The notes under the pieces: generated by a model | The model's input: the letters and a program-made list of their open reading frames with translations, nothing else | Told to the model about the DNA's origin: nothing | Databases searched by the model: none | Made by a program: the position numbers and the translations under genes | DNA from: a virus | Length of the DNA stretch: 46,576 bases | Direction: 5' to 3' (one strand) | Virus record (IMG/VR): IMGVR_UViG_3300025381_000024 | Shown here: piece by piece, positions 19,316 to 39,687 of the stretch | Layout of the letters: every line of letters starts with the position of its first letter | Position numbering within the stretch: position 1 is the first letter of the stretch

Positions 19316-19504
19316 TTAATCTCCTAATCTTGACTGTGATTTATTAAGCATGGCAAATACTTGATTGGCATTAGAAGCAGCATAGTCTGGACAAACTGGA
19401 TATTCATTTCCATCGCTGCGAACTGCCATCCAACAACCAGGGATTGATGCCTTTACCCTGGGATTATATTTTTCAGGTACTAAGTAAACTTCCACTATTT
19501 TCAT
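19316..19504 (-). CDS. Hypothetical protein (62 aa)
   Basis: ORF coupled to the upstream gene (ATGA overlap at 19501-19504). Confidence 0.6.
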   Translation of the reverse strand: MKIVEVYLVPEKYNPRVKASIPGCWMAVRSDGNEYPVCPDYAASNANQVFAMLNKSQSRLGD

Positions 19505-19746
19505 GATTGACTCCTTGGAATTGAACCAACTAAATTACCTTCCATTACTTCAAAAATAATTAACTTTGCTCTATTCAAAGACTGTCTGGCTCTTTCATCC
19601 ATGCCAACAGCAATTTCTTCCTGGGCATCACTCATAATGCTGGCAGCGCACATAAGAGCACCAGAAAATTGATAGCTAAGAGATTCTTTGACGCTTGATA
19701 AAAAAGCATCTGGATCACAACCATACATTTGATTTACTTGACTCAT
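19501..19746 (-). CDS. Small early protein, paralogue of 32047-32277
   Basis: 81 aa. It shares MSQ..MYGCD...MSDAQEE.AVG..ERARQSLNRAK...FE.M.GN with the island gene. It is the first gene behind a promoter plus a CACGAAAGG leader. Confidence 0.7.
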   Translation of the reverse strand: MSQVNQMYGCDPDAFLSSVKESLSYQFSGALMCAASIMSDAQEEIAVGMDERARQSLNRAKLIIFEVMEGNLVGSIPRSQS

Positions 19747-19784
19747 TTTGATTTCCTTTCGTGAATAATCAAACTACATAAGAA

Positions 19785-22205: not shown

Positions 22206-22559
22206 ATGACTGAAATTACTTTGGAACTACCGCTTCCACCCACTATAAATAGCTATTGGGGATTCTCTGGTCATAGGCGATTTTTAACATTACCAGCCAG
22301 GGAGTTTAAGCAGCAAGTGGCTCATATAGTGAACCAGCAAAAAATTAATTTTGAAGATCAAAAATTATCTATTGACATCACATTATTTTGGAAAGATAAA
22401 AGAATTCAAGATTTAGATAATCGCTGCAAATCTTTACTGGATTCGCTTGTCCAGGCTGGTCTAGCCAATGATGATAGTCAATTTAAAGAAATACACATCT
22501 ATGAAGGTGGCATTTTAAAGGGTGGGAAAACCCTGATAAAAATATCTGTCATAGATTAA
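22206..22559 (+). CDS. rusA: RusA-family Holliday junction resolvase
   Basis: LELPLPPTINSYW..., DLDNRCKSLLDSLVQAGLANDDSQ and the C-terminal KGG..I align with E. coli RusA ([35 protein letters not shown]). Confidence 0.85.
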   Translation: MTEITLELPLPPTINSYWGFSGHRRFLTLPAREFKQQVAHIVNQQKINFEDQKLSIDITLFWKDKRIQDLDNRCKSLLDSLVQAGLANDDSQFKEIHIYEGGILKGGKTLIKISVID

Positions 22560-24488: not shown

Positions 24489-24516
24489 ACTTATGTTGGA
24501 TACGAAAGGTAATAAA

Positions 24517-24999
24517 GTGATTGAACCGATACCATTTGCAGGATTAATTGAGTTGGATGTGGGATTTATCCCTGCCAGCTTAGATCGTGCAATTGCCATA
24601 GCTGCTAGTGCTCATGCTGGTCAAGTTGACAAAGCAGGTGAGCCTTATATTTTGCATCCTTTAAGAGTAATGTTGTCTGTACCACCAGAAGCCAGGATTG
24701 CTGCGGTATTGCATGATGTTTTAGAAGATAGCGATATTAGCTCTGACGATTTATTGGCTGAAGGATTTAGCCCTGAAAATTTGGCTGTTTTAGATGCTGT
24801 CAGTCGTAGACCTGGTGAGTCATACCATTCATTTATTGTTCGATGCTCTAAAAACCCATTGGCTAGAATCGTTAAATTGGCTGATTTGCGAGATAACTGC
24901 GATATGAGTAGATTGGCAAATCCATCTTTGGCTGATTGGGCAAGATACGAAAAATATATGGAAGCAATTGTTTATTTGCGTGGCGATGAATTGTGCTAA
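24517..24999 (+). CDS. HD-domain small alarmone hydrolase (SpoT/Mesh1-type (p)ppGpp/(p)ppApp pyrophosphohydrolase)
   Basis: AASAHAGQVDKAGEPYILHPLRV, AAVLHDVLEDS and VKLADLRDN match the RelA/SpoT hydrolase-domain motifs (AH.GQ.RK.GEPYI.HPL.VA, LHDV.ED, KLADRL.N). The start is probably GTG 24517, 7 nt after AAAGG; the ORF-track ATG at 24493 lies at the predicted transcript start. Confidence 0.8.
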   Translation: MIEPIPFAGLIELDVGFIPASLDRAIAIAASAHAGQVDKAGEPYILHPLRVMLSVPPEARIAAVLHDVLEDSDISSDDLLAEGFSPENLAVLDAVSRRPGESYHSFIVRCSKNPLARIVKLADLRDNCDMSRLANPSLADWARYEKYMEAIVYLRGDELC

Positions 25000-27076: not shown

Positions 27077-27553
27077 ATGGATAAACAAGTTAAATTTTCT
27101 AAAATATATGGACTCTCAGATAAAAAAACTGGAGAGATAATCTATATTGGAAAATCGGATGATCCAAAAAAAAGATTAAAACAACATATTTATGACTCAA
27201 AAAGGCGAAATACAAAATTACATCAATGGATTAGAAAAAATCCAAATTCAGTAGAATTGATTATATTAGCCTGTGCTATAAGTAATGATTGGCAATCCCT
27301 TGAAAAACAAATGATTGCTCAATATAAAGAATCTGGAAAACTTCTTAATATTGCCAAAGGCGGAAATCAACCATTTAGAGATGAAAATGATTCATTTAAA
27401 AGAAAAGCATGGATTATTAAAAATTTCATGGCTAGACTTGTCAATGAATGGAAAAATATACCAACCACCGAAAAAATTGAAGAAAGAAAAGCCATGCTTA
27501 GATATGCTGCATGGAAAAAACCAGAATTATTTGGTGAATGGAAGTATTTATGA
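27077..27553 (+). CDS. GIY-YIG endonuclease (free-standing homing-endonuclease-like)
   Basis: KIYGLSDKKTGEIIYIGKSDDPKKRLKQH gives the GIY...YIG...R motifs. The gene is inserted just before terS and its stop overlaps the terS ATG. Confidence 0.75.
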   Translation: MDKQVKFSKIYGLSDKKTGEIIYIGKSDDPKKRLKQHIYDSKRRNTKLHQWIRKNPNSVELIILACAISNDWQSLEKQMIAQYKESGKLLNIAKGGNQPFRDENDSFKRKAWIIKNFMARLVNEWKNIPTTEKIEERKAMLRYAAWKKPELFGEWKYL

Positions 27554-28002
27554 AAGAAAAGGGCAGACCATCCATCTTTACTGAAGAAATAGCCCATGAG
27601 ATTACTGAAAGATTGTCAGATGGAGAGCCATTAAGAGCAATTTGTCGATCTGAAGGAATGCCAAACTGGAGAACTGTGTATGATTGGATGGCAAAAGATA
27701 ATACATTTTCCGCACACATCGCACACGCAAGGGAGATTGGCTTTGATGCAATAGCCGAAGAAGCCCTAATGATTGCTGATACTCCTTGCTATTTAGAAAC
27801 AAAAGAAACCATTGAAGATCAAGGAAAACCAACAAAAGTTAAAGTCGTAGTGGCTGATGCTTTTAATCATCGTAGATTACAAGTCGATACTAGGCTAAAA
27901 CTATTAGCTAAATGGTGTCCTAAAAAATATGGCGATCAAGTTCAATTTGATGTAGAAAACAATAACTGGACAGTCAATGGCATCCCTGTCAAAACAAGGT
28001 AG
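27550..28002 (+). CDS. terS: Terminase small subunit
   Basis: KGRPSIFTEEIAHEITERLSDGEPLRAICRSEGMPNWRTVYDWM is the typical HTH N-terminus of phage small terminase subunits. It lies directly upstream of, and overlaps, terL. Confidence 0.8.
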   Translation: MKEKGRPSIFTEEIAHEITERLSDGEPLRAICRSEGMPNWRTVYDWMAKDNTFSAHIAHAREIGFDAIAEEALMIADTPCYLETKETIEDQGKPTKVKVVVADAFNHRRLQVDTRLKLLAKWCPKKYGDQVQFDVENNNWTVNGIPVKTR

Positions 28003-29278
28003 AGAACCCATAGAATTACCCCCTTTACACCAGGGACAACAAGAAGCCTTTGATGCTTCCACTCGATTTTTTGCTATTCGCTGCGGTAGGCGATGGGGCA
28101 AAACTGCCATGATGCAAAACATTGCTTGTGCTGGAGCAGCCCAAGGCGAAAAAATAGGATGGTTTGCACCTGACTATAAAATTCAATCTGAAGCCTTTAG
28201 GGAAATAGCCGATCTATTAGCTCCCATGATTAAGTCATCATCTAAGATTGATGGCATTATTCAAACCTATACTGGTGGGCGCATAGACTTCTGGACTTTG
28301 GAAAATGAAAGGGCTGGTCGATCCAGGAAATACCATAAAGCCTTTATTGATGAAGCAGCCTTTACCAAGCCCAATATGTCTAAAGTATGGCAAACCGCTA
28401 TCAAACCAGCATTACTCGATTATCAAGGTAGTTGTATTACAGCATCAACACCCAATGGAATTGATAGCGACAACTTCTTTTGGCAGATATGCAATCAGCC
28501 TGAACATGGATTTACTGAATACCATGCTCCAACCTTTACTAATCCATTTCTACCTAAAGAGGAATTGGAAAAGCTGGAGAGAGAAAATCATCCAATGGTA
28601 TTTAAGCAAGAATACCTGGCTGAATTCGTGGATTGGTCAGGTGAAGCATTCTTTAGCCTAGATAAGCTGCTGGTCGATAATAAACCTGTGGTTTACCCTA
28701 GTAAATGCGATGGTGTATATGCAGTCATTGATACTGCGGTCAAAGGCGGTAAAGAAAATGATGGTACTGCCATTGTCTATGTTGCTGTAGACCGATATAC
28801 CCAAAATCCATATAACCTGATTTTATTGGATTGGGATATTGTGCAAATTGATGGCGCAATGCTAGAAAATTGGATGCCAAGTGTATTTTCCAGATTAGAA
28901 GAACTCGCTAGATTGACTAATGCAAGGCAGGGAGTTGTCGGTACATTTATTGAAGATGCTGCTGCTGGATCAATTTTGATTCAACAAGGCAGAGCAAGAG
29001 GATGGAATACTCATGCCATTGACTCAGGGTTAACCTCAGTAGGCAAGGATGAAAGAGCCATTTCTGTATCGGGTTACTTTCACCAGGGCTTAATGAAGAT
29101 TAGCGATTATGCTTTTGATAAGACTATGACATTTAAAAATGCTAGTCGTAATCACCTATTAACTCAGGTAACTGGATTTAGAATTGGCGATAAAGATGCC
29201 TACAAAAGAGCAGATGACTTGCTAGATGCTTTCGTATATAGTTTAGCCATTGGTGTTGGCGATAAATATGGCTACTAA
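27977..29278 (+). CDS. terL: Terminase large subunit
   Basis: Walker A-like CGRRWGKT, a Walker B-like FIDEAAF and a C-terminal nuclease-type acidic residue pattern. 433 aa, followed by the portal gene. Confidence 0.9.
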   Translation: MASLSKQGREPIELPPLHQGQQEAFDASTRFFAIRCGRRWGKTAMMQNIACAGAAQGEKIGWFAPDYKIQSEAFREIADLLAPMIKSSSKIDGIIQTYTGGRIDFWTLENERAGRSRKYHKAFIDEAAFTKPNMSKVWQTAIKPALLDYQGSCITASTPNGIDSDNFFWQICNQPEHGFTEYHAPTFTNPFLPKEELEKLERENHPMVFKQEYLAEFVDWSGEAFFSLDKLLVDNKPVVYPSKCDGVYAVIDTAVKGGKENDGTAIVYVAVDRYTQNPYNLILLDWDIVQIDGAMLENWMPSVFSRLEELARLTNARQGVVGTFIEDAAAGSILIQQGRARGWNTHAIDSGLTSVGKDERAISVSGYFHQGLMKISDYAFDKTMTFKNASRNHLLTQVTGFRIGDKDAYKRADDLLDAFVYSLAIGVGDKYGY

Positions 29279-29287
29279 GGAATAACT

Positions 29288-31579
29288 ATGTCTGATGTGA
29301 TGGTGAATAATACTTATCTGGGTGGTGAATTAATGAACCTGCTCAGTTCTGAGAATATCCAACCAGGTTCACAGGCAGGTTATGAATTATGCAAAATCAT
29401 TTGGGAATATCACCCATTAGGCGGTAAATTAGTTGAAAAGCCAGTTCGCTTGGCTCTTTCAAAACCCAGAATTATTACTGTAGATGCAGAACCAAAGGAA
29501 ATGTTGGTCGAGGCATTTCAAAAAGAATGGGAAAAATTAGGTGCTACTAATCATATTCGTGATGTTATGTTTATCAATCGCACTTATGGGGCTGGTGGAA
29601 TTGTTGTGGGTGCTGATAAGATTCCTACTACTGAGCCTATTGATCCTTGGCAGCTTCCTGATCTCAACATTTATTTTAATCAGTTAGACCCATTAAACAT
29701 GGCTGGTTCGATTGTTACAAACCAGAACCCAAATGCGCCAGACTTTCAAAAACCTCTTGCATACACTACTGCTGCTGGTCAGCCTTATCATCCTAGCCGT
29801 AGCGTGGTGGTATTCAATGGCACTCCTATCTACTTGTCTTTCCAATCTAGTGCTTTCGGCTATACAGGTCGAAGTGTGTTTCAAAGGGCATTGTATCCAT
29901 TAAAGTCTTTTGTTCAGTCGATGATTACCGATGACCTGGTGACTTTTAAATCAGGTCTGATTATTGCCAAGCAAAAACCTGCTGGGTCTATTGTCAATCG
30001 CTTAATGCAAACTGCTGCTGGTATTAAGCGCACTTATTTGCAAGAAGGCGGTACTGGCAATGTGCTATCAATTGATATTGATGAAGAAATCAACTCCATT
30101 GATTTGACCAATACTGCAACTGCAATGACAACTGCCAGAGATAACATCATTGCCAATATTGCTGCTGCTTCCGATGTCCCTGCAATGCTACTCAAAGATG
30201 AAGCATTTACTCAAGGCTTTGGTGAAGGTACTGAAGATGCAAAAGCCATTGTCCAGTACATTGATGGCATTCGAGTTGACATGGAATCTTTGTTCCGATT
30301 CTTTGACAAGATCGTAATGCACCGAGCCTGGAATAAAGAATTATTTGAATCTATTCAATCTGCCTATCCAGAGCAATATGGCAAGATGACCTATGAGCAA
30401 GCATTCTATTCATGGAAAAATGCTTTCAAACCTGAGTGGGAATCACTCATGGAAGAACCGCCAAGCGAAAAAGTCAAAGTTGATGACATTAAGCTAAAAG
30501 GTGTTACTGAAGTACTTCGTACAATGCTGCCAGTTATTGATCCACAAAATAGAGCAAATTTAATTCAATGGGCTGCTGACAATTTGAATGAAATGCCAGA
30601 TATGTTCCAAAGTTCTATGCAATTGGATGCTGATGCAATCGCTGAATATGAAATTCCAGAACAAGAACTTAAAAACTTACCTAGATTGGATGCTTATTTT
30701 GCAAAGGGGGATTGGGCAAACCCCACCCCAAAAGCTGATGCTTTCATAGAACAAGACCATCCCAGGGATGCGGATGGAAAATTTACTGCTGGCGCAGGTA
30801 GTAGCGCAGCAACCACTACTATGCCTGGTGGTCGAGCACAAGCCCCATATACTGTGGCAGCTAAATCTATTCCACAACCACCAGAGCCACCAAAGGCAGC
30901 AAATAAACCTACAGCAGCAGAGCCACCTAAAGTTCCAACCGCCAAAAGCGCAAAAGAGCATTTAGAAGGAAAGTTGCAAAAGAAAGATGTAGATCGCTTA
31001 CCAAAAGAAAAACGCAAAGAATTTGAAGAAATGTACCAAAGGGCTGCCCAAAACAAAAACAAGTTTGATGAGACCAATGCCCAGATCGCTAAAGAACTTG
31101 GTGGTAAAGCTGCGGTTGTGCCACTCAAGGGTTCAGAAAGAGCAGTTGATAAGATCACCAAGTCTTACAATAATGACCCATCCAAAATTAAAGATTTGCT
31201 CAGAACCACTATCGAGATTAATTCAGTAAAAGATGTGCCAAGTGCTATCGAGAAGATTAAAGCCCAATATGGTGAGCCAGCAAAATTAAGAAATCTTCTT
31301 GATCCTAATGTCGATTCATTAGCAGGGTCTGGATACCGAGACATCAATATGGTGGTTGAAGTCAATGGTTCTTATGCTGAGATTCAAGTAAATATGCCCC
31401 AGATGCTAGAAGCAAAAGAAAAAGGGCATAAGTACTATGAAGAAGTTCGTATTATTGTCGAGGATGCTGAAGTTCAAAAAAGACCATTAACTGCTGATGA
31501 GCAGGAAAAGGTTAATGCAGCCAACAATAAGATGAAAGAACTTTATGATGCTGCCTGGGAATCCATCACCAAAGCCTGA
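29288..31579 (+). CDS. Portal protein fused to a C-terminal RelA/SpoT-like nucleotidyltransferase domain
   Basis: The ~480-aa N-terminal core is portal-like by position after terL and by size. It is followed by HPRDADGKF, a Pro/Ala/Lys-rich linker, and a C-terminal domain with PLKGSERAVDKI, DLLRTTIEI, SGYRDINMVV and AEIQVNM...GHKYYE. Confidence 0.7.
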   Translation: MSDVMVNNTYLGGELMNLLSSENIQPGSQAGYELCKIIWEYHPLGGKLVEKPVRLALSKPRIITVDAEPKEMLVEAFQKEWEKLGATNHIRDVMFINRTYGAGGIVVGADKIPTTEPIDPWQLPDLNIYFNQLDPLNMAGSIVTNQNPNAPDFQKPLAYTTAAGQPYHPSRSVVVFNGTPIYLSFQSSAFGYTGRSVFQRALYPLKSFVQSMITDDLVTFKSGLIIAKQKPAGSIVNRLMQTAAGIKRTYLQEGGTGNVLSIDIDEEINSIDLTNTATAMTTARDNIIANIAAASDVPAMLLKDEAFTQGFGEGTEDAKAIVQYIDGIRVDMESLFRFFDKIVMHRAWNKELFESIQSAYPEQYGKMTYEQAFYSWKNAFKPEWESLMEEPPSEKVKVDDIKLKGVTEVLRTMLPVIDPQNRANLIQWAADNLNEMPDMFQSSMQLDADAIAEYEIPEQELKNLPRLDAYFAKGDWANPTPKADAFIEQDHPRDADGKFTAGAGSSAATTTMPGGRAQAPYTVAAKSIPQPPEPPKAANKPTAAEPPKVPTAKSAKEHLEGKLQKKDVDRLPKEKRKEFEEMYQRAAQNKNKFDETNAQIAKELGGKAAVVPLKGSERAVDKITKSYNNDPSKIKDLLRTTIEINSVKDVPSAIEKIKAQYGEPAKLRNLLDPNVDSLAGSGYRDINMVVEVNGSYAEIQVNMPQMLEAKEKGHKYYEEVRIIVEDAEVQKRPLTADEQEKVNAANNKMKELYDAAWESITKA

Positions 31580-31761
31580 AAAGCCGATGAATTAATTGGT
31601 AGCATAAAGACACCCTTCATATCAAAGGGTTGAGGTTCTCCATTGATCCAAGCTGCAACCATTGGAATACCATCACCAGCATTGACTGATACTGGATATT
31701 CATCTTCTGCTGTTACATAGAAAATAGCCGATGGACTAATCTCATATTTGCCTATTTGCAT
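31543..31761 (-). CDS. Hypothetical protein (72 aa from ATG 31761), convergent with and overlapping the portal 3' end
   Basis: An AAAGGAG Shine-Dalgarno sequence lies 5 nt before the second ATG (31761). A TGATACAAT extended -10-like sequence (minus strand, about 31780-31788) lies upstream. The 3' end overlaps the portal ORF by 37 nt. Confidence 0.5.
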   Translation of the reverse strand: MQIGKYEISPSAIFYVTAEDEYPVSVNAGDGIPMVAAWINGEPQPFDMKGVFMLPINSSAFQALVMDSQAAS

Positions 31762-31813
31762 ATAGACTCCTTTCATTAAATTGTATCATACATCTACCCC
31801 TATAGGATAGAGC

Positions 31814-31838
31814 AAAAAGCCCACAAGGGGCTTATTTT
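31814..31838 (-). terminator. Rho-independent terminator of the leftward island operon (hairpin flanked by A and T runs, so possibly bidirectional)
   Basis: The minus strand reads AAGCCC-CTTGT-GGGCTT followed by TTTG. On the plus strand it is preceded by AAAAA. Confidence 0.6.
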
Positions 31839-32028
31839 AATAGCGATTCTTTAATAATCTTTTTGCTGCTGCCAGGCGAAGATCATCCGCTTCAGAATTA
31901 AGACCAGGCAAAATAGATAATGCTCGAATCATATTCTTTAATGCAACTTTGTCAGAATTGCCAGCAATTCGCAAATCCGCATACTTCGCAGGATTATTAA
32001 TTTTCAAATCTTCATAATAGCTAGACAT
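31837..32028 (-). CDS. Hypothetical protein (63 aa), island
   Basis: The CACGAAAGG leader (32037-32045, minus strand) lies 8 nt upstream of the ATG. Confidence 0.6.
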   Translation of the reverse strand: MSSYYEDLKINNPAKYADLRIAGNSDKVALKNMIRALSILPGLNSEADDLRLAAAKRLLKNRY

Positions 32029-32046
32029 TTTATTTCCCTTTCGTGG

Positions 32047-32277
32047 TTATCTTGGAATTTCCAAAATCATATTGCCATCCATGATTTCAAACAAAATCGC
32101 TTTGGCTCTGTTCAAACTCTGTCTGGCTCTTTCATTCGCACCCACAGCCAATTCCTCTTGAGCATCACTCATAAGACCAGCAACAACAATACCAGCCCCA
32201 CCCAACTTGTAGCTGGCTGATGATCTGATCTGCGCTATAAACTGCTCAATGTCGCAACCATACATTTCCTGACTCAT
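32047..32277 (-). CDS. Small protein, paralogue of 19501-19746
   Basis: 76 aa. About 55-60% identical by eye to the early-operon copy, with an invariant MSDAQEE.AVG..ERARQSLNRAK core. Confidence 0.7.
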   Translation of the reverse strand: MSQEMYGCDIEQFIAQIRSSASYKLGGAGIVVAGLMSDAQEELAVGANERARQSLNRAKAILFEIMDGNMILEIPR

Positions 32278-32420
32278 GCTGCACCCCTTTCTTGAAATTG
32301 CTGGATAACTGCCCTAGCAGCAGCAGCCCTGCCCATTTGACCTTTTGCCAAAGCCAAAATCAAAATCCCCTGGGCTTGGGCAATACTGAAAACCTCGTAT
32401 CCATACAAAGACAAACTCAT
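32274..32420 (-). CDS. Small Ala-rich protein (48 aa), first gene of the leftward island operon
   Basis: MSLSLYGYEVFSIAQAQGILILALAKGQMGRAAAARAVIQQFQERGAA. The CACGAAAGG leader lies 8 nt upstream. The stop overlaps the next ATG. Confidence 0.5.
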   Translation of the reverse strand: MSLSLYGYEVFSIAQAQGILILALAKGQMGRAAAARAVIQQFQERGAA

Positions 32421-32455
32421 TTCAAACTCCTTTCGTGATTAACTACTACACTTAC

Positions 32456-32484
32456 ATATTAATACTTATTAGGTATAAGCACAA
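32456..32484 (-). promoter_or_regulatory. Leftward island promoter (TTGTGC-17 nt-TAATAT)
   Basis: The minus strand reads TTGTGCTTATACCTAATAAGTATTAATATGTAAGTGTAGTAGTTAATCACGAAAGGAGTTTGAAATG. Confidence 0.55.
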
Positions 32485-32540
32485 GGACTATTTCACTATT
32501 TGTTGTATTTGTGCAAAAACAACACTTTAGATAAATAGAT

Positions 32541-32569
32541 TTGACACCTATACTAAATAGGAATAATAT
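32541..32569 (+). promoter_or_regulatory. Rightward island promoter (TTGACA-17 nt-TAATAT)
   Basis: A consensus -35, a 17-nt spacer and a good -10, followed by the leader ...GTAGTCTTAATTAACCACGAAAGGG and ATG 32609. Confidence 0.65.
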
Positions 32570-32608
32570 AAGAATGTAGTCTTAATTAACCACGAAAGGG
32601 AATTAAAA

Positions 32609-32782
32609 ATGCAGATCGACCAAGCCATTGCAATTATTGAGGAATATCGCCAGGACTGTGGAATTGGGTTCTTGGAAGCCTTGATTGAAATTCGTCAGAA
32701 TCCAGAGGAATTTAGCGAGCAGCAATTGATCGCTTATCGGGTTTTTATGAATGATGCTCGTCAGATGTTTCAACCAGCTTGA
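32609..32782 (+). CDS. Hypothetical protein (57 aa), island
   Basis: MQIDQAIAIIEEYRQDCGIGFLEALIEIRQNPEEF... The CACGAAAGG leader lies 9 nt upstream. It is below the ORF-track cutoff. Confidence 0.55.
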   Translation: MQIDQAIAIIEEYRQDCGIGFLEALIEIRQNPEEFSEQQLIAYRVFMNDARQMFQPA

Positions 32783-32791
32783 GGGGGTTTT

Positions 32792-32989
32792 ATGAATTTA
32801 TTGATTGCTGAAAAAGTTGGCGGTTCTTTTCAAAAAATCGGTGTCATGAATGGCGATGAGTTGCTTGCAGATTGTTTGCTTGCTGTCGGTCTTGCCTACA
32901 ATGCCAAAAGGTTTTTTGAAGGAGATTCGGCAGCAGTTTCTCTGGATTATCAGTTAGAGGGTATTGAGTACAGAGTTTTAAAGTTTTAA
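32792..32989 (+). CDS. Hypothetical protein (65 aa), island
   Basis: A GAGGGGG Shine-Dalgarno sequence lies upstream. The gene is compactly placed. Confidence 0.55.
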   Translation: MNLLIAEKVGGSFQKIGVMNGDELLADCLLAVGLAYNAKRFFEGDSAAVSLDYQLEGIEYRVLKF

Positions 32990-33015
32990 GTAGTTCAACC
33001 ACGAAAGGAGTTGTT

Positions 33016-33258
33016 ATGAAATACCAATTAGATGTTAGTCGTGATGTAGATGCGGATGACGATGCCTATATGCTCTGGCTGCCATTCGGCTTTAGATTTT
33101 CAGATGATTTAGTTCATGTTCGAGGTTTTGACACTATGGCTGAGATTCGTCAAGCTGCCAAAAATGATGTTATTCCCTGCGATTGTGAAGATTGCAAGTT
33201 GAATATCAAAGAATTGGCTGCCAAGAAAGCATCTTTTATGAAGGAAATGCTGAAGTAG
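33016..33258 (+). CDS. Hypothetical protein (80 aa), island
   Basis: The CACGAAAGG leader (33000-33008) lies 7 nt upstream of the ATG. Confidence 0.6.
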   Translation: MKYQLDVSRDVDADDDAYMLWLPFGFRFSDDLVHVRGFDTMAEIRQAAKNDVIPCDCEDCKLNIKELAAKKASFMKEMLK

Positions 33259-33265
33259 CAAAAAT

Positions 33266-33290
33266 GCAACAACCCTAAAAAAGTTGTTGC
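33266..33290 (+). promoter_or_regulatory. 8-bp hairpin GCAACAAC-(9 nt)-GTTGTTGC overlapping the -35 of the next promoter
   Basis: Read directly. It is not followed by a T run, so it is not a classical terminator. Confidence 0.35.
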
Positions 33291-33314
33291 ATTAATACCT
33301 AATAGGTATATACT
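33287..33314 (+). promoter_or_regulatory. Rightward island promoter (TTGCAT-16 nt-TATACT)
   Basis: It is followed by GAAAGTGTAGTAATTAACCACGAAAGGAAAATTATG. The ATACCTAATAGGTAT and GTGTAGTA.TTAA.CACGAAAGG segments are shared with the 32456 promoter unit on the other strand. Confidence 0.55.
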
Positions 33315-33347
33315 GAAAGTGTAGTAATTAACCACGAAAGGAAAATT

Positions 33348-33680
33348 ATGAAAGAAGTTGAAATCTGGGCTGGCAAAAAAGTCATGGCATACCAGGATGC
33401 TGACTTGGTTGAAAAAATGCCCTATATCAAAGCTGCTGAGTCTGTCTGGTATCAAAGCTGGTTGGACAATGGCGGTGAGGATGTCGGTAGCTGCTGCGGT
33501 GGCAAAGCGATTCGGATTTACTACTTGGGCAAAGGAAAAAGAAATGTTGTAGAAAAAAGCATTGTGCCTTGTAGCTTTGTTCAGGGAAATGTGGCTGCTG
33601 CGAAATCAGTTGCTCCTGCTTTGGAATTCTTGGCTGCTCATGGGATTGTCGGTGAGTATTACGATGGTTGGATGGATTGA
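33348..33680 (+). CDS. Hypothetical protein (110 aa), island
   Basis: The CACGAAAGG leader lies 6 nt upstream. Confidence 0.6.
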   Translation: MKEVEIWAGKKVMAYQDADLVEKMPYIKAAESVWYQSWLDNGGEDVGSCCGGKAIRIYYLGKGKRNVVEKSIVPCSFVQGNVAAAKSVAPALEFLAAHGIVGEYYDGWMD

Positions 33681-33685
33681 TTAAT

Positions 33686-33699
33686 GCCCCTTCGGGGGC
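33686..33699 (+). promoter_or_regulatory. GCCCC-UUCG-GGGGC tetraloop hairpin (copy 1), fused to the CACGAAAGG leader
   Basis: ATGCCCCTTCGGGGGCTTCACGAAAGGAAT. There is no T run, so it is more likely a processing, stability or attenuation element than a terminator. Confidence 0.5.
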
Positions 33700-33717
33700 T
33701 TCACGAAAGGAATCAAA

Positions 33718-33969
33718 ATGGCAATGGCTTATAAAGAAATGGTTGTGTTTGCGAAATATGTTTATAGCTTCTATGGCGATGGCGGTATTTATGATATGGG
33801 AGTTCCCTATGAAATCATTAAGCAAGCTATCCGCTTTTTGCAATCAAAGGATGGTCGCAAGTATCGCTACGGTATTCCTGTGTGTGGCGATTCTGTAGAT
33901 CGTGAGCATATTCGCATGATCTTGGAAGAAGAATATGGGTATTGTGAAAAAAAGCTACAAGCTGCTTGA
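33718..33969 (+). CDS. Hypothetical protein (83 aa), island
   Basis: The leader CACGAAAGG lies 7 nt upstream. Confidence 0.6.
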   Translation: MAMAYKEMVVFAKYVYSFYGDGGIYDMGVPYEIIKQAIRFLQSKDGRKYRYGIPVCGDSVDREHIRMILEEEYGYCEKKLQAA

Positions 33970-33993
33970 CATTATCCTAAATTAGTATATTAT
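33966..33993 (+). promoter_or_regulatory. Rightward island promoter (TTGACA-16 nt-TATTAT)
   Basis: A consensus -35 overlaps the stop of the previous gene. It is followed by ...GTTGTAGTG... and the AAGGAG Shine-Dalgarno sequence of ATG 34035. Confidence 0.5.
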
Positions 33994-34034
33994 TAAGTTG
34001 TAGTGTTTATTAATCATCAAATAAGGAGTTAATC

Positions 34035-34532
34035 ATGGGTTCAATTAGTAGTCATGCTGGTGCTGCCAAAATGGTTCGCCAGTTTATGAAAGCCAAAGGC
34101 ATCGCTGGTCAAGTTCGCAGCAAAAGCTATAGCATGGGTAGCAGCATTCATGTGTATGTTCAGGATTTGCCCCCAGCGCAATATGCTGAGTTGAGCAGCT
34201 ATGTCAGTCAGTTTGAGTATGGTCACTTCAATGGCATGGAAGATATTTATGAGATCAGCAATCGCAGGGATGACATTCCCCAAGTGAAATATGCCTTTGT
34301 TGACAATAAAATGAGTGATGCCTTGGGTGAAAAGATTTACCAGTTCATGAAAGGATATTACTCTGGCATGGAAGGTGCTCCAGATAGTTTCAAAGATGCC
34401 CATAGTTTTTACAACATGAGATTCAATGGGTATGCAAGTCACTTGGTTTACAAGTTATTTGCTGGTGGTTATATGCACAATGAATATTGGATTTCAGTTG
34501 GTGTCATTGCTCCAGAAGTAGAAGCTGCTTAA
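34035..34532 (+). CDS. Hypothetical protein (165 aa), island
   Basis: Strong AAGGAG Shine-Dalgarno sequence. No motif I can name with confidence. Confidence 0.65.
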   Translation: MGSISSHAGAAKMVRQFMKAKGIAGQVRSKSYSMGSSIHVYVQDLPPAQYAELSSYVSQFEYGHFNGMEDIYEISNRRDDIPQVKYAFVDNKMSDALGEKIYQFMKGYYSGMEGAPDSFKDAHSFYNMRFNGYASHLVYKLFAGGYMHNEYWISVGVIAPEVEAA

Positions 34533-34537
34533 TTGAT

Positions 34538-34551
34538 GCCCCTTCGGGGGC
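34538..34551 (+). promoter_or_regulatory. GCCCC-UUCG-GGGGC tetraloop hairpin (copy 2), fused to a CATGAAAGG leader variant
   Basis: ATGCCCCTTCGGGGGCTTTCCATGAAAGGGAAT, a near-repeat of 33683-33712. Confidence 0.5.
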
Positions 34552-34571
34552 TTTCCATGAAAGGGAATAGT

Positions 34572-34748
34572 ATGATAGATAAATTTTTAACTTTAGAAAA
34601 TGCCAAGGCTTATGCTGCAACTCAGGACAAATTGCTATTTTGCGAATATTTGACAGACTTGCCATTCCAAAGCAAAGCATTAGAAAAGTTTGAATATGAA
34701 ATGTTTGTGTTTGCCCTTAATTTAGGACTTGTATCAGAAGATGACTAA
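34572..34748 (+). CDS. Hypothetical protein (58 aa from ATG 34572), island
   Basis: ATG 34572 lies 6 nt after the AAAGGG leader. The upstream in-frame extension in the ORF track would run through the hairpin. Confidence 0.5.
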   Translation: MIDKFLTLENAKAYAATQDKLLFCEYLTDLPFQSKALEKFEYEMFVFALNLGLVSEDD

Positions 34749-34950
34749 AACTAGAAAAAGGGGTGGTCTTGGTACTACCCCAAAACCAGAAGAAATTATT
34801 GCAGCCAGGGCTGCATTATCTCAATCCAAAGCTGCATCTTTAATATATACTACCCAAGCAAGATGGTCAGATTATGAAACTGGCAAAAGTCGTATGCACC
34901 CTGCTGCCTGGGAACTATTTTTATTAAAGATACAGAATGACATTTTTTGA
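34741..34950 (+). CDS. XRE-type helix-turn-helix protein (69 aa)
   Basis: LSQSKAASLIYTTQARWSDYETGKSRMHPAAWELFLL fits the HTH_XRE pattern (q..aA.l.g.s...is.wE.G.r.p). It overlaps both neighbours. Confidence 0.6.
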   Translation: MTKTRKRGGLGTTPKPEEIIAARAALSQSKAASLIYTTQARWSDYETGKSRMHPAAWELFLLKIQNDIF

Positions 34951-35737
34951 AGTTCTTACTGCTGCCATTAATGACTTTATTGAATATGGCTTTGATTCTC
35001 AAAGTCGAGTAGACAATTGGCTTAAAAAGATTAAAGAAGCAGCAGAAAAGGCTTTGATGTCAGAAGCCCAGATGCAAAAAGAAATGGAAAAGTCTTTAAA
35101 TGCAGCCTTTTCTCGCCTGGTGACTAAAGGCGGTCTAGTCAATAAAGAAGTATCCAAATATGACATTGACCGATTAAAGCCAAAACTTAGGTCTGAACTA
35201 GATCGCAGAATCATGGCTTCTGCAAACTTGATTAAATACAATCGAGAGCAAAGTATTACAGATGTGCTCAGAAGATTTGAAGGTTGGGCTACATCCATTC
35301 CTAAAGGCGGTTCACTCGCAGTAGACCGCAATAAAGAAAAACAAAATATTAAAAAGTCTTTAGCAAAAATGCCTTTTAATCAAAGGCGAGTTGTAATAGA
35401 TCAAACCCATAAATTGATTTCTAACATTAATGATATTGTCGCTGTTGATAATGGCGCAATTGCTGGTAAATGGCATTCTCATTGGAAACAAATTAATTAT
35501 GATTACCGCAAAGATCATAAAGAAAGGGATGAAAAGGTTTATGTCATTAGAGGTAATTGGGCAAGCGAAAAAGGATTTATTAAAGCCACTAATGGATATA
35601 CTGATGACATTACCACTCCAGGTGAAGAAGTATACTGTCGCTGTTATTACAAATATATTTACAGTTTGCGAAAGATGCCTGAAGAAATGCTTACAAAAAA
35701 AGGCAAACTAGCGTTACAATCGTCAAAAATACTGTAA
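34937..35737 (+). CDS. MuF / SPP1 gp7-like minor head (head morphogenesis) protein
   Basis: The C-terminal GKWHSHW...TPGEEVYCRCYYKYIY resembles the P..H.NCRC end of the MuF family. 266 aa, at the head of the capsid-assembly genes. Confidence 0.7.
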   Translation: MTFFEVLTAAINDFIEYGFDSQSRVDNWLKKIKEAAEKALMSEAQMQKEMEKSLNAAFSRLVTKGGLVNKEVSKYDIDRLKPKLRSELDRRIMASANLIKYNREQSITDVLRRFEGWATSIPKGGSLAVDRNKEKQNIKKSLAKMPFNQRRVVIDQTHKLISNINDIVAVDNGAIAGKWHSHWKQINYDYRKDHKERDEKVYVIRGNWASEKGFIKATNGYTDDITTPGEEVYCRCYYKYIYSLRKMPEEMLTKKGKLALQSSKIL

Positions 35738-35746
35738 GGTAGTTTT

Positions 35747-37957
35747 ATGCCATTTAAGTCGGAACAACAAAGAAAAGCTATGTATGCTGCATTGGCAGGA
35801 CATAGCAACATTGGAATTCCTAAAGAAGTGGCTAAAAAATTCATCAAACACAGCGAAGATGATTCTGGTGATTTCCCAGAAAAAGCTACTCCACTCAGCA
35901 CTCCAGAATTTAAAGAAGATGATGAAATCGTCATTCGTGCTGGCAAAAAAGATGAATTAAAGAAATTTCAAGGTGATTTAGCTGATGTAGCTAAAATCAT
36001 CCAAGGTCTTAAAGACCAATCTCAAACAGTACCTAGATTTGGTCAAGATGCTGACCCTTGCTGGGAAGGCTATAAACAAGTTGGCATGAAAGAAAAAGAT
36101 GGCAAAGAAGTACCAAATTGTGTGCCAGATGCTGCTGATCTAGTAGCTAAAACCCCAGAATTAGTTGCTCCAATTGCTAATAATGCTGGTGCAGCAGGTC
36201 GGGCTTCTGGAATCATGTTTGTTACTGGTGAAGGTCATACTTTATTAATTCGCAGAGGTTCAGGCGGTGGCGATTATCCTAATACCTGGTGTGTGCCAGG
36301 CGGTCATCAAAAAGAAGGCGAAACTTTAGAAGAAGCTGCTCGCAGAGAAACTAAAGAAGAAACTGGCATTGACTATAAGGGTAAATTAGAAGTATTACAC
36401 GATGATGGTCAATTCTGCACCTACATTGCTAGAGATGTAAAAAAAGAAGAAGTCAAACTCAATTATGAGTCTACTGGCTATGATTGGTGCGATCCGCTTT
36501 GCCCACCTTTGCCATTACATCCTGGTTTAGAAGTTGCATTCAAAATTGCATCCTCTAAGACTGAGACCGATGTTGCTCAGTTAATGGCTGATAACCTTAT
36601 TCCAAGTCCACAAATGTATGCCAATATCATGTTATTGGCTATCCGCATTACTGGTACTGGATTGGCTTATCGGTCAAGCATTGGCGAGAATGTCTGGAGA
36701 GACCCATCACTTTATCTAAATGATGAGTTCTTAAAAAGATGTAATGGATTAATGGTCATTATGGATCATCCAGATTCTGCGGTTCTTACTTCTAAGGAAT
36801 TTAAAAATCGTGCAGTAGGAAGTATTATGCTTCCTTATATTAAAGGTGATGAAGTCTGGGGCATCGCTAAAATCTATGACCAAGATGCTGTAAATGAAAT
36901 TTGTGAGGGAGAGATTTCTACCTCACCTTCAGTAGTATTTGACAATACTGCTGGAAACACTACACTAACTACTGAGAATGGCGAGCCACTCTTAATAGAA
37001 GGTGTTCCATTTCTTTTAGACCATATAGCTATCGTTACGAAAGCTAGAGGGTCTAGAGGTGTATGGGATAAGGGTGGCGATGCCACAGGAGTTCTTTTAA
37101 ATAACCAAGAGGTGTCTGATATGAATGACAATACTATTGCACCAAAGGCAGATGCCCAAGGTGATAAGTTGGATGCTGTACTCGCTGTACTAGGCGATTT
37201 GGCTGCAAGAATGGATGCGATGGAGAAGGAATTACCTGCTCCACCATTAGTTACTGCTGCTGATAAAAAGCGCAAAGATGATGACTCAAAACATCGTAAA
37301 GACGATGATGATGAGGAAGAAGAAGAAATGGCTAAAAAAGATGATGATGATGAGTCTGAATCTGAAGCTAAAGCCTATATGATGCGTAAAGCTGACAAGA
37401 AGCGTAAAGATGCAGAAGGTTCTGATCCAAAAGAACATGGCAAAGCTGGCGAAATCAAGCCTGATGATGAAGGCATGGTTGAACATCCTGGTCACATGGA
37501 ATTCAAAAAAGATGACGATGATGAGGAAGAAGAAGCAATGCGTAAAGATGAAGAAGAAGCTGCAATGTGCGATGCACAAGCTAAAGCTGATTCTGTTTAT
37601 GCTTCCTTCGGTAAATCTGCTTCTCGCCCATTAAAAGGCGAAGTTCTATTGTCTTATCGCAAGCGTTTGTTGCGTGGTCTCCAAGCCTATTCTGATAGCT
37701 ACAAGTCAGTAAACTTGGCTTCTATCAAAGATGCACAATTGTTAAATATTGCTGAAAAGCAAATTTTTAATGATGCTTTGATGGCTGCTAAATCACCAAC
37801 TATGTTCGCCCCAGATCAATTGATTGAAATTCATGAAAAAGATCGTGCTGGTCGTACAATCACGAAATTCAAAGGCGCAATGGAAGCATGGCTAGGTGAC
37901 TTTAAAGTTCCTTCTATGCGAGTCAAAGAATTTCATCTTTTCAACAATAAGCGATAA
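35747..37957 (+). CDS. Polyprotein: N-terminal conserved phage motifs, a Nudix hydrolase domain, a scaffold/prohead-protease-like region, and a highly charged scaffold-like C-terminus
   Basis: A perfect Nudix box GHQKEGETLEEAARRETKEETGI (GX5EX7REUXEEXGU) lies at 36302-36370. It sits in the position between MuF and the capsid genes. It has long acidic/basic runs (KDDDDEEEEEMAKKDDDDESESE and KKDDDDEEEEAMRKDEEE). Confidence 0.7.
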   Translation: MPFKSEQQRKAMYAALAGHSNIGIPKEVAKKFIKHSEDDSGDFPEKATPLSTPEFKEDDEIVIRAGKKDELKKFQGDLADVAKIIQGLKDQSQTVPRFGQDADPCWEGYKQVGMKEKDGKEVPNCVPDAADLVAKTPELVAPIANNAGAAGRASGIMFVTGEGHTLLIRRGSGGGDYPNTWCVPGGHQKEGETLEEAARRETKEETGIDYKGKLEVLHDDGQFCTYIARDVKKEEVKLNYESTGYDWCDPLCPPLPLHPGLEVAFKIASSKTETDVAQLMADNLIPSPQMYANIMLLAIRITGTGLAYRSSIGENVWRDPSLYLNDEFLKRCNGLMVIMDHPDSAVLTSKEFKNRAVGSIMLPYIKGDEVWGIAKIYDQDAVNEICEGEISTSPSVVFDNTAGNTTLTTENGEPLLIEGVPFLLDHIAIVTKARGSRGVWDKGGDATGVLLNNQEVSDMNDNTIAPKADAQGDKLDAVLAVLGDLAARMDAMEKELPAPPLVTAADKKRKDDDSKHRKDDDDEEEEEMAKKDDDDESESEAKAYMMRKADKKRKDAEGSDPKEHGKAGEIKPDDEGMVEHPGHMEFKKDDDDEEEEAMRKDEEEAAMCDAQAKADSVYASFGKSASRPLKGEVLLSYRKRLLRGLQAYSDSYKSVNLASIKDAQLLNIAEKQIFNDALMAAKSPTMFAPDQLIEIHEKDRAGRTITKFKGAMEAWLGDFKVPSMRVKEFHLFNNKR

Positions 37958-39661: not shown

Positions 39662-39687
39662 AAAAAGCCACCTTCGGGTGGTTTTTT
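39662..39687 (+). terminator. Rho-independent terminator after the capsid gene (AAAAAGCCACC-TTCG-GGTGGTTTTTT), symmetric
   Basis: GC-rich stem, UUCG loop, a T6 tail and a matching A5 upstream. Confidence 0.85.

Follow-up and report, generated by a model that had tools for sequence, protein, structure and literature searches.

A portal-fused Tas1/Apk-type domain, a candidate immunity gene and small-gene cassettes with an Aca10-like regulator at the portal–MuF junction of a phage genome

Toxin–immunity modules in which a head protein carries a Tas1/Apk-type domain are known as the MuF Apk2-IapK/Tis1-Aph1 modules of Bacteroides caccae, Streptococcus pneumoniae and Mannheimia (PMC10083569, PMC12226406, PMC5576092). 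MuF toxins have been reported only from temperate phages (PMC5576092), and the purpose of head-associated toxin–immunity modules of phages, together with whether their toxins enter hosts by injection, is a stated open question (PMC10083569). A second known system that bears on the present locus is the acrIC7-acrIC6-aca10 operon of Pseudomonas citronellolis, in which Aca10 is a dimeric repressor whose operator palindrome lies between, and overlaps, the −35 and −10 boxes (PMC9410881). Here we analyze the portal–MuF junction of IMG/VR virus record IMGVR_UViG_3300025381_000024 (46,576 nucleotides, referred to at its full length as the window, and by our reading a complete, permuted genome of 46.6 kb from a freshwater phage), where an island of ~3.4 kb with small open reading frames (ORFs) on both strands lies between the portal gene and the gene for the MuF-like head morphogenesis protein. 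We propose, with a probability of about two in three, that the locus has two layers, a portal-toxin immunity module and a set of early accessory cassettes under Aca10-type regulation. The features on which the first layer depends are the following.

29288-31579, plus strand: portal gene, 763 aa
29288-30730, plus strand: portal body (Phage_portal_3, Pfam PF06381, E 4.5e-16)
30749-30784, plus strand: junction motif EQDHPRDADGKF, followed by a G/S-rich and then a P/A/K-rich linker to about 30980
30980-31579, plus strand: Tas1/Apk-type, RelA-SpoT-like and (p)ppApp-synthetase-like domain, the portal C-terminus
31543-31761, minus strand: A77, 72 aa, candidate cognate (binding) immunity protein, convergent with the portal gene, 37-nt overlap
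31780-31792, minus strand: extended −10 promoter of A77, TGTATGATACAAT, followed by the ribosome-binding site AAAGGAG, both conserved across divergent alleles
24493-24999, plus strand: homologue of Aph1-type (p)ppApp hydrolases in the early rightward operon (PDB 7SMG, E 2.6e-30; Pfam HD_4)
34937-35737, plus strand: MuF-like head morphogenesis protein, 266 aa (phrog_324, E 5.6e-26), which has no toxin extension

Comparisons were made with 14 GenBank relatives (phages of Shewanella, Yersinia, Klebsiella, Pantoea and Actinobacillus, together with Rac-SA53) and with 44 closer IMG/VR loci, whose MuF identity is 61-99%; loci are given by their L numbers. The portal body is 44-48% identical to the ~480-aa portals of the 14 GenBank phages, and the matches stop near residue 460. 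The C-terminal domain itself gives a weak Pfam RelA_SpoT match and a match to the C-terminal part of phrog_7625 ('head morphogenesis'). A profile of seven portal C-terminal alleles (alignment A1) matches Tas1, the (p)ppApp synthetase toxin of type VI secretion, with an E value of 2.4e-20 (PDB 6OX6), and the synthetase-type motifs KG..R..K, DL.R, GYRD, E.Q and H..Y are invariant in all seven. By these profile comparisons the portal C-terminus is assigned as a Tas1/Apk-type pyrophosphokinase-like domain; its toxicity, and (p)ppApp as its product, seem probable, with indirect support from the Aph1-type hydrolase gene of the same genome. The motif (D/E)HPRDxDGKF is also invariant in alignment A1 and, across loci, is found only at carrier/cargo junctions, including that of L047, whose portal belongs to the unrelated PF04860 family. 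When the toxin domain was used as query, only 11 unnamed metagenomic clusters were recovered, so that the search was uninformative on other carriers.

The same slot holds other cargo in relatives. In L015, L017, L018 and L019 the portal is fused, behind the same HPRD..GKF motif, to a P-loop cargo with a weak Zeta-toxin match, whereas in L005 and L035 stand-alone proteins with a HEXXH motif occupy the slot, and in L032, L037 and L043 Tas1-like proteins are encoded as separate ORFs just 3' of an unextended portal, behind a common leader of ~45 aa. With differing cargo types in one slot behind a shared junction motif or leader, the slot follows the grammar of polymorphic toxin loci. The P-loop cargo lies at L015:3906-5133 and L017:1653-2697, and is then followed by a different small ORF (58-80 aa) on the same strand. 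Stand-alone slot proteins share the ~45-aa N-terminal leader (MRFLNKKSGQFV...LLRS.DY; L005:567-2018, L035:995-2638, L038:9458-9988 and L043:6095-7018), which could be a capsid-targeting or portal-binding signal.

The sequence-only reading that preceded this work had expected an immunity gene for a toxin-type cargo directly after the portal, and several lines of evidence bear this out by pointing to A77. Its conserved start is the ATG at 31761, an upstream ATG at 31776 not being conserved, and its extended −10 element has been recorded as TGTATGATAMAAT. Across ten loci, the pairwise identities of A77 and of the toxin domain are correlated with a Spearman coefficient of 0.92, whereas those of either with the portal body, MuF and the island proteins J165 and L69 (described below) reach 0.30-0.46; those four are mutually correlated at 0.85-0.94. 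The window and L003 share 100% identity in the portal body, J165 and L69 and 97% in the island protein B63, but 55% in the toxin domain and 46% in A77. The breakpoints bracket exactly the toxin domain and A77, with flanks of 97-100% identity, and the two were replaced together as one cassette. A77 diverges faster than the toxin domain, as has been described for the Apk2 binding immunities (PMC12226406). Moreover, P0020, a distant homologue of A77, is convergent with a 729-aa PF04860 portal and overlaps its end; the C-terminus of that portal is the same toxin domain behind a DHPRD motif (hhalign E 5.6e-49). For another homologue, P0022, a spacing of 3 bp separates its gene from the preceding one, which encodes a small alarmone hydrolase (SAH) of MESH1 type; this pair is flanked on one side by the C-terminus of a type I restriction R-subunit (EcoR124_C) and on the other by an EVE-HNH gene, a cellular setting of the defence-island kind. 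SAH and an A77-like protein are encoded together in an operon at L049:645-1399 and in L050 and L051, with no toxin gene visible within these contigs of 1.2-1.5 kb, and may represent immunity genes that are orphans within a defence island of bacteria. In L050 the homologue has a 303-aa partner that was considered as a toxin domain and rejected as such; it is the EVE-HNH protein. The family is small, with 16 representatives among 1.84 billion proteins, and the AlphaFold2 (AF2) model of A77 has five strands and one helix (predicted local distance difference test, pLDDT, 93).

Because it is exchanged together with the toxin domain, recurs with it on an unrelated portal and is paired with an alarmone hydrolase, A77 is the best immunity candidate for the portal toxin domain. 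Several points weigh against this assignment. A77 matched nothing significantly in the PDB, whether by sequence or by fold, or among the folds of BFVD, and Tis1 and IapK were not among the matches; A77 is convergent, not co-directional, with the toxin gene; and the co-variation of adjacent genes could result from linkage alone, about five independent alleles having been seen.

Alarmone hydrolases provide a second candidate for immunity. The Aph1-type gene of the window, which is preceded by an early-type promoter and a TACGAAAGG leader and probably starts with the GTG at 24517, codes for a protein that keeps the equivalents of D24-K25-A26, N114, D116 and R119, the residues reported to confer (p)ppApp specificity (PMC10083569). 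An earlier result of ours, that the window has no alarmone hydrolase (tblastn with the SAH of relatives), was overturned by the Pfam and PDB matches of 24493-24999. In relatives, a MESH1-type SAH is found inside the island (L006-L011, L020, L032, L037 and L043; HD_4, E 1.6e-15; 3NR1, E 9e-30), and only together with RSH-like cargo (seven of nine distinct types vs none of seven, Fisher P=0.003, the count for islands with other or no cargo covering captured flanks only). The two SAH-less cargo types, that of the window and the L003/L045 type, both carry the early Aph1-type gene, and the toxin-less L021 has neither hydrolase within its syntenic stretch. The homology of these proteins is clear from the profile matches, and a function as a second, product-degrading immunity seems probable, against which stands the distance of 6.5 kb between the Aph1-type gene and the toxin, a linkage at the level of the genome only.

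In the first layer of the proposed mechanism, the portal carries the Apk-type domain by way of the (D/E)HPRDxDGKF junction and the flexible linker. A77, produced from its own host-type extended −10 promoter, would act as an allele-specific binding immunity, the domain thus being kept inactive in the producing cell, and the Aph1-type hydrolase of the early operon would be a second, product-degrading immunity, in place of which relatives would use the MESH1-type hydrolase of the island. Alternatively, the RSH-like domain might be a virion-borne or late signalling enzyme, with A77 as a folding or assembly chaperone or an allosteric regulator. The portal C-terminus would be inside the capsid, where a chaperone could serve assembly, and A77 differs in fold from the immunity proteins Tis1 and IapK. 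We nevertheless regard this as quite unlikely, since the nearest solved relative of the domain is a bactericidal (p)ppApp synthetase, the genome codes for a hydrolase specific to (p)ppApp, a type of enzyme for which action as an immunity protein has been demonstrated (PMC10083569), and the other cargo in the slot is toxin-like too (Zeta-toxin-like and HEXXH proteins). A portal chaperone would also be unexpected beside an SAH in a cellular restriction/EVE-HNH neighbourhood.

Portal and MuF genes are close neighbours in many relatives. In all 14 GenBank relatives, with portals of ~480 aa, the portal and MuF matches are at most ~80 bp apart, and the MuF protein of the window is 44-48% identical to the products of these portal-adjoining genes; the gap is 37 bp or less in 24 loci, beyond which 12 more GenBank relatives have adjacent matches, and the two genes are adjacent in 22 IMG/VR relatives. 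An insert together with a portal lengthened by 268-408 aa is seen in 14 genomes, the window included, and an insert with an unextended portal in six loci; over these 20 genomes the inserts measure ~0.5-4.4 kb and are mosaic in gene content. These comparisons confirm the accessory insertion of the sequence-only reading and show that it is polymorphic. Since portal and MuF adjoin in many relatives and the content of the inserts is mosaic, a structural role for the island genes is ruled out. The description of a small-ORF island that splits portal from MuF, with four leftward ORFs from 32420 down to 31543 and the last one overlapping the portal 3' end by 37 nt, also held, but the number of ORFs had been put too high: instead of about 14, ten of them rightward, there are 12, with A77, B63, C76 and D48 leftward and E57, F65, G80, H110, I83, J165, K58 and L69 rightward. 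Other than A77, these are as follows.

31837-32420, minus strand: leftward operon, made up of the next three genes; no family matches, presence/absence mosaic in relatives
32274-32420, minus strand: D48
32047-32277, minus strand: C76
31837-32028, minus strand: B63
32609-33258, plus strand: P1 operon, made up of the next three genes; no informative relatives
32609-32782, plus strand: E57
32792-32989, plus strand: F65
33016-33258, plus strand: G80
33348-33680, plus strand: H110
33718-33969, plus strand: I83, which matches phrog_7799, a family of unknown function
34035-34532, plus strand: J165, stand-alone LPD29 domain protein (Pfam PF18847, E 1.6e-4)
34572-34748, plus strand: K58, directly 5' of the putative repressor gene L69
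34741-34950, plus strand: L69, Aca10-like helix-turn-helix (HTH) protein, at the island right edge and overlapping the MuF start

The second layer centers on L69, for which the label XRE-type HTH had been given and can now be refined to Aca10 homologue. The profile of L69 (A6) matches Aca10 (PDB 7XI5) over residues 4-59 of 65 with an E value of 2.1e-14, which is 12 orders of magnitude better than the weak match to the HTH of MqsA, and the arginine-containing SRMHP region is invariant in the alignment. L69 is the conserved right edge in 17 island-bearing loci and closes the gene order P3, J165, K58, L69, that is, it lies at the 3' end of a small-ORF operon behind a strong promoter. The control elements of the island are these.

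32484 down to 32442, minus strand: promoter P4, with operator ATACCTAATAAGTAT at 32462-32476
32541-32580, plus strand: promoter P1, with a TTGACA −35 box at 32541 and an operator at about 32550-32564, a weaker palindrome
33287-33325, plus strand: promoter P2, with the perfect 15-bp palindrome ATACCTAATAGGTAT (33295-33309) between −35 and −10
33966-34004, plus strand: promoter P3, TTGACA-16-TATTAT (11 of 12 consensus positions), with the operator-like TATCCTAAATTAGTATA (33973-33989)
31817-31833: hairpin, intrinsic terminator of the leftward operon, with a proper U-tract in the leftward sense only and weaker rightward
33686-33699 and 34538-34551: identical GCCCC-UUCG-GGGGC hairpins without U-tracts

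The island palindromes, of 15-17 bp and located between the −35 and −10 boxes, have the same position in the promoter as the operator of Aca10. Their half-sites co-vary across relatives (ATGCTTA/TAAGCAT and TTATTCTTA/TAAGAATAA), and the operator pattern has eight matches in the window vs 2.0±1.4 expected. On the grounds of homology and sequence symmetry, we infer that L69 binds these palindromes and represses the island promoters. Against this stands the weaker palindrome of P1. A copy of the operator with three mismatches, at 22249-22263 of the window and near divergent early promoters at ~22.1-22.2 kb, could be a link of L69 to control of the early region or a chance occurrence.

From its overlap with the MuF start, which makes co-transcription with MuF probable, L69 could be read as a regulator of the MqsA/antitoxin type or of a late switch, responsible for the timing of the MuF and head genes, and the small ORFs as factors for packaging of DNA or assembly of the head. 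Late read-through could be lowered by the hairpin at 31817-31833, which would make the island promoters useful for the head genes; the MqsA operator ACCT-N3-AGGT resembles the P2 palindrome, and L69 has weak MqsA-type matches. We find this very unlikely, because half of the relatives, and all 14 from GenBank, assemble heads without these genes, L69 included, because the Aca10 match is far better than that to MqsA, and because the promoters are early-like and not late-like.

The island promoters share a design that resembles that of the early-region promoters and not of the late ones. A generic scan for sigma-70 sites found 30 vs 26±5 expected, so that the sigma70-like promoters of the sequence-only reading gain no support from enrichment of this general kind, although its TTGACA boxes at 32541 and 33966 stand and the composite design is enriched. 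This composite promoter, defined as TTGnnn, a spacer of 16-17 nt with a palindrome, TAnnnT, GTAGT and a leader, occurs six times in the window vs about one expected, with four of the occurrences in the island (P=4e-4). P4 and P1 form a divergent pair (32442-32580) with near-identical orthologous promoters in L006, L007, L010 and L011, and P3 is conserved in L003, L004, L006, L007, L011 and L019. The leader CACGAAAGG, noted before as standing in front of most island genes, has 19 matches at up to one mismatch vs 5.5±2.1 expected, eight of which precede eight of the 12 island genes; in relatives, 63 kb of island DNA contain it 37 times and 175 kb of flanking sequence not once. L006 has no E57-F65-G80 block, and its P1 leader is joined straight to the start of H110. 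The junction falls inside the shared sequence TTAACCACGAAAGG, which shows that recombination within the promoter-leader motif removes and adds cassettes.

The position of the terminator hairpin at 31817-31833 is conserved in relatives; the terminator had been placed at 31814-31838, a span now narrowed. The repeated UUCG hairpins of the sequence-only reading are real, as two identical copies starting at 33686 and 34538, but, having no U-tracts, they do not qualify as canonical terminators. A third hairpin with a UUCG loop (CCACC-UUCG-GGUGG) is found at 39668-39681 of the window, plus strand, just past the major capsid gene.

Could the island be instead a neutral hotspot at which 'ORFan' genes accrete, where insertions are tolerated, A77 co-varies by adjacency only and the HTH protein is a generic phage regulator? 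Most of its ORFs have no homologues of known function, the content is highly mosaic, the island of L020 even having an HNH-AP2 homing-endonuclease-like gene (L020:4912-5415), and joint exchange is expected for adjacent genes. We think this unlikely. The breakpoints bracket exactly the toxin domain and A77, with B63 at 97% and the portal body at 100% on either side; A77 homologues are found again beside an unrelated portal that carries the same toxin, and beside an alarmone hydrolase with no toxin gene in view; relatives agree at almost every base of the promoters, operators and leaders; and L69 is specifically Aca10-like.

In the second layer of the proposed two-layer locus, the 11 genes other than A77 are organized in cassettes of an early-type sigma-70 promoter, a CACGAAAGG leader and one or more small ORFs, which relatives shuffle by recombination in the shared promoter and leader sequences. 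L69 would repress the four island promoters by way of the 15-17-bp palindromes, giving an early burst of expression followed by shut-off, as in acr-aca operons, and because of this type of control the small ORFs are candidate counter-defence or host-takeover factors. The anti-defence-type architecture claimed from the sequence alone is supported by the Aca10 homologue and the palindromic operators; weighing against it, sequence searches of solved and catalogued proteins found no small island ORF similar to a known anti-defence protein.

Searches of Pfam, PHROGs, NCBIfam and PADLOC returned nothing for nine of the 12 island ORFs, and K58, H110 and I83 had no match among PDB sequences. The slot of K58 is that of the MESH1-type SAH in L006-L011. 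J165 has 71 homologue clusters, most of them tagged PF18847, and an AF2 model with a pLDDT of 90.5, which had no match in the PDB by sequence or fold. Solo LPD domains near virion genes are proposed by Iyer et al. (2017, PMC5512222) to aid early invasion. C76 has a paralogue in the early region, as had been noticed before.

19501-19746, minus strand: C76 paralogue (58% identity over 78 aa, E 5e-31), preceded by a promoter and leader at 19763, minus strand

The head module has the order TerS, TerL, portal, island, MuF-like protein, Nudix-DUF2213 protein, cement protein and major capsid protein, and the remainder of the genome is laid out in conventional blocks.

0-15 kb: tail genes
18-27 kb: divergent early operons with ERF, SSB, YqaJ, RusA and NinB
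27977-29278: TerL
35747-37957, plus strand: head protein, 736 aa, with a NUDIX domain (residues 152-249), DUF2213 and weak similarity to head-maturation proteases

The Nudix domain of this head protein is family-wide (the version of Shewanella phage QDWS is 31% identical); considered as a toxin-specific immunity, it was rejected, being present even in island-free loci. The MuF-Nudix interval is a second variable spot (L005, L010-L016, L022-L024 and other loci; 35747-36166 in the window), where relatives are only 36-100% identical over the N-terminal ~140 residues of the Nudix-DUF2213 protein and have up to ~0.6 kb of extra sequence. A GIY-YIG endonuclease gene (27077-27553 of the window, plus strand) lies directly 5' of the small terminase gene and overlaps it. 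No integrase or CI-type repressor was found among the ORFs scanned. Megablast of 29000-36000 against GenBank phages gave no match, and a scan for MuF in 185,579 species genomes found no relative. GenBank entries OK094664.1 (Shewanella phage vB_Sb_QDWS) and OP650936.1 ('Hujiaoplasma phage zrk29-1') are both 47,902 bp long, give identical scores and look like one genome under two very different hosts.

A wider reading, which we hold only tentatively, is that the portal–MuF junction is a general 'virion cargo' locus. Swappable toxins (Apk-type, Zeta-toxin-like and HEXXH peptidase-like), attached to the portal or to the ~45-aa leader via HPRDxDGKF, would be packaged and ejected with the DNA and would transiently disable the host, to be quenched by early A77 together with Aph1 or SAH, and bacteria would keep toxin-less pairs of SAH and A77-like genes in defence islands as an anti-phage defence. 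In any event, the lineage offers a comparative series, with no cargo, portal-fused cargo and stand-alone cargo, at least three cargo types and two hydrolase solutions. It also provides small candidate immunity proteins of a new family, for which the matched toxin alleles lend themselves to tests of cross-protection. The pairing of SAH and A77-like genes without a toxin, in the cellular defence-island setting, suggests that immunity genes may be used by hosts for their own defence, and the Aca10-type control circuit flags about ten small ORFs as candidate new counter-defence proteins.

Among described systems, the MuF Apk2 modules are alike in having a Tas1/Apk-type domain fused to a head or packaging protein at the portal-MuF position, an adjoining small allele-specific gene, swappable toxin domains, and an HD-family (p)ppApp hydrolase as a second, interchangeable and variably present layer. 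Unlike in those modules, the carrier here is the portal (PF06381), and MuF (phrog_324) is separate and toxin-free. Moreover, A77 has no detectable similarity to Tis1 or IapK and its gene runs towards that of the toxin, the early operon holds the Aph1-type gene at a distance of 6.5 kb, and the junction has the HPRDxDGKF motif. In contrast to the temperate phages that carry MuF toxins, the window has no integrase or repressor among the ORFs scanned and no prophage relatives, several early ORFs being unassigned. The Tas1/Apk1-Tis1 pair of the Pseudomonas aeruginosa type VI secretion system (T6SS; PDB 6OX6) likewise joins a toxin to a small cognate immunity protein and provides the closest solved homologue of the catalytic domain, but delivery there is by PAAR/T6SS and not by a phage portal, and neither sequence nor fold searches relate A77 to Tis1.

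The acrIC7-acrIC6-aca10 operon (PMC9410881) shares with the island a strong sigma-70 promoter with a palindrome, small ORFs and a terminal Aca10-type HTH gene of ~65 aa; here, however, the operator is common to four promoters, which lie on both strands, the unit is part of the head module, the ORFs upstream do not resemble known Acr proteins and the half-site differs (ATACCTA vs ATACGCTCA). By their description, the PeSL cassettes of T4-type phages (PMC2839356, PMC4122927) are also alike, in that variable ORFs are flanked by conserved early-promoter/stem-loop motifs that are points of recombination, but the phage is of a different type (46.6 kb) and the motif here adds a translation leader and a repressor operator. 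Portal-fused effectors predicted to be packaged and injected, and solo LPD domains (LPD29 among them) beside virion genes, are features of the polyvalent-protein systems (Iyer et al., 2017; PMC5512222), for which the portal fusions named are to PBECR, 2H and InPase and those described for RelA/SpoT are on MuF. The locus is a variant of the MuF-Apk2-IapK/Tis1-Aph1 systems, and of acr-aca operons, with the portal as carrier, a new candidate immunity family, a dispersed hydrolase gene and, in combination with these, an acr-aca-like circuit.

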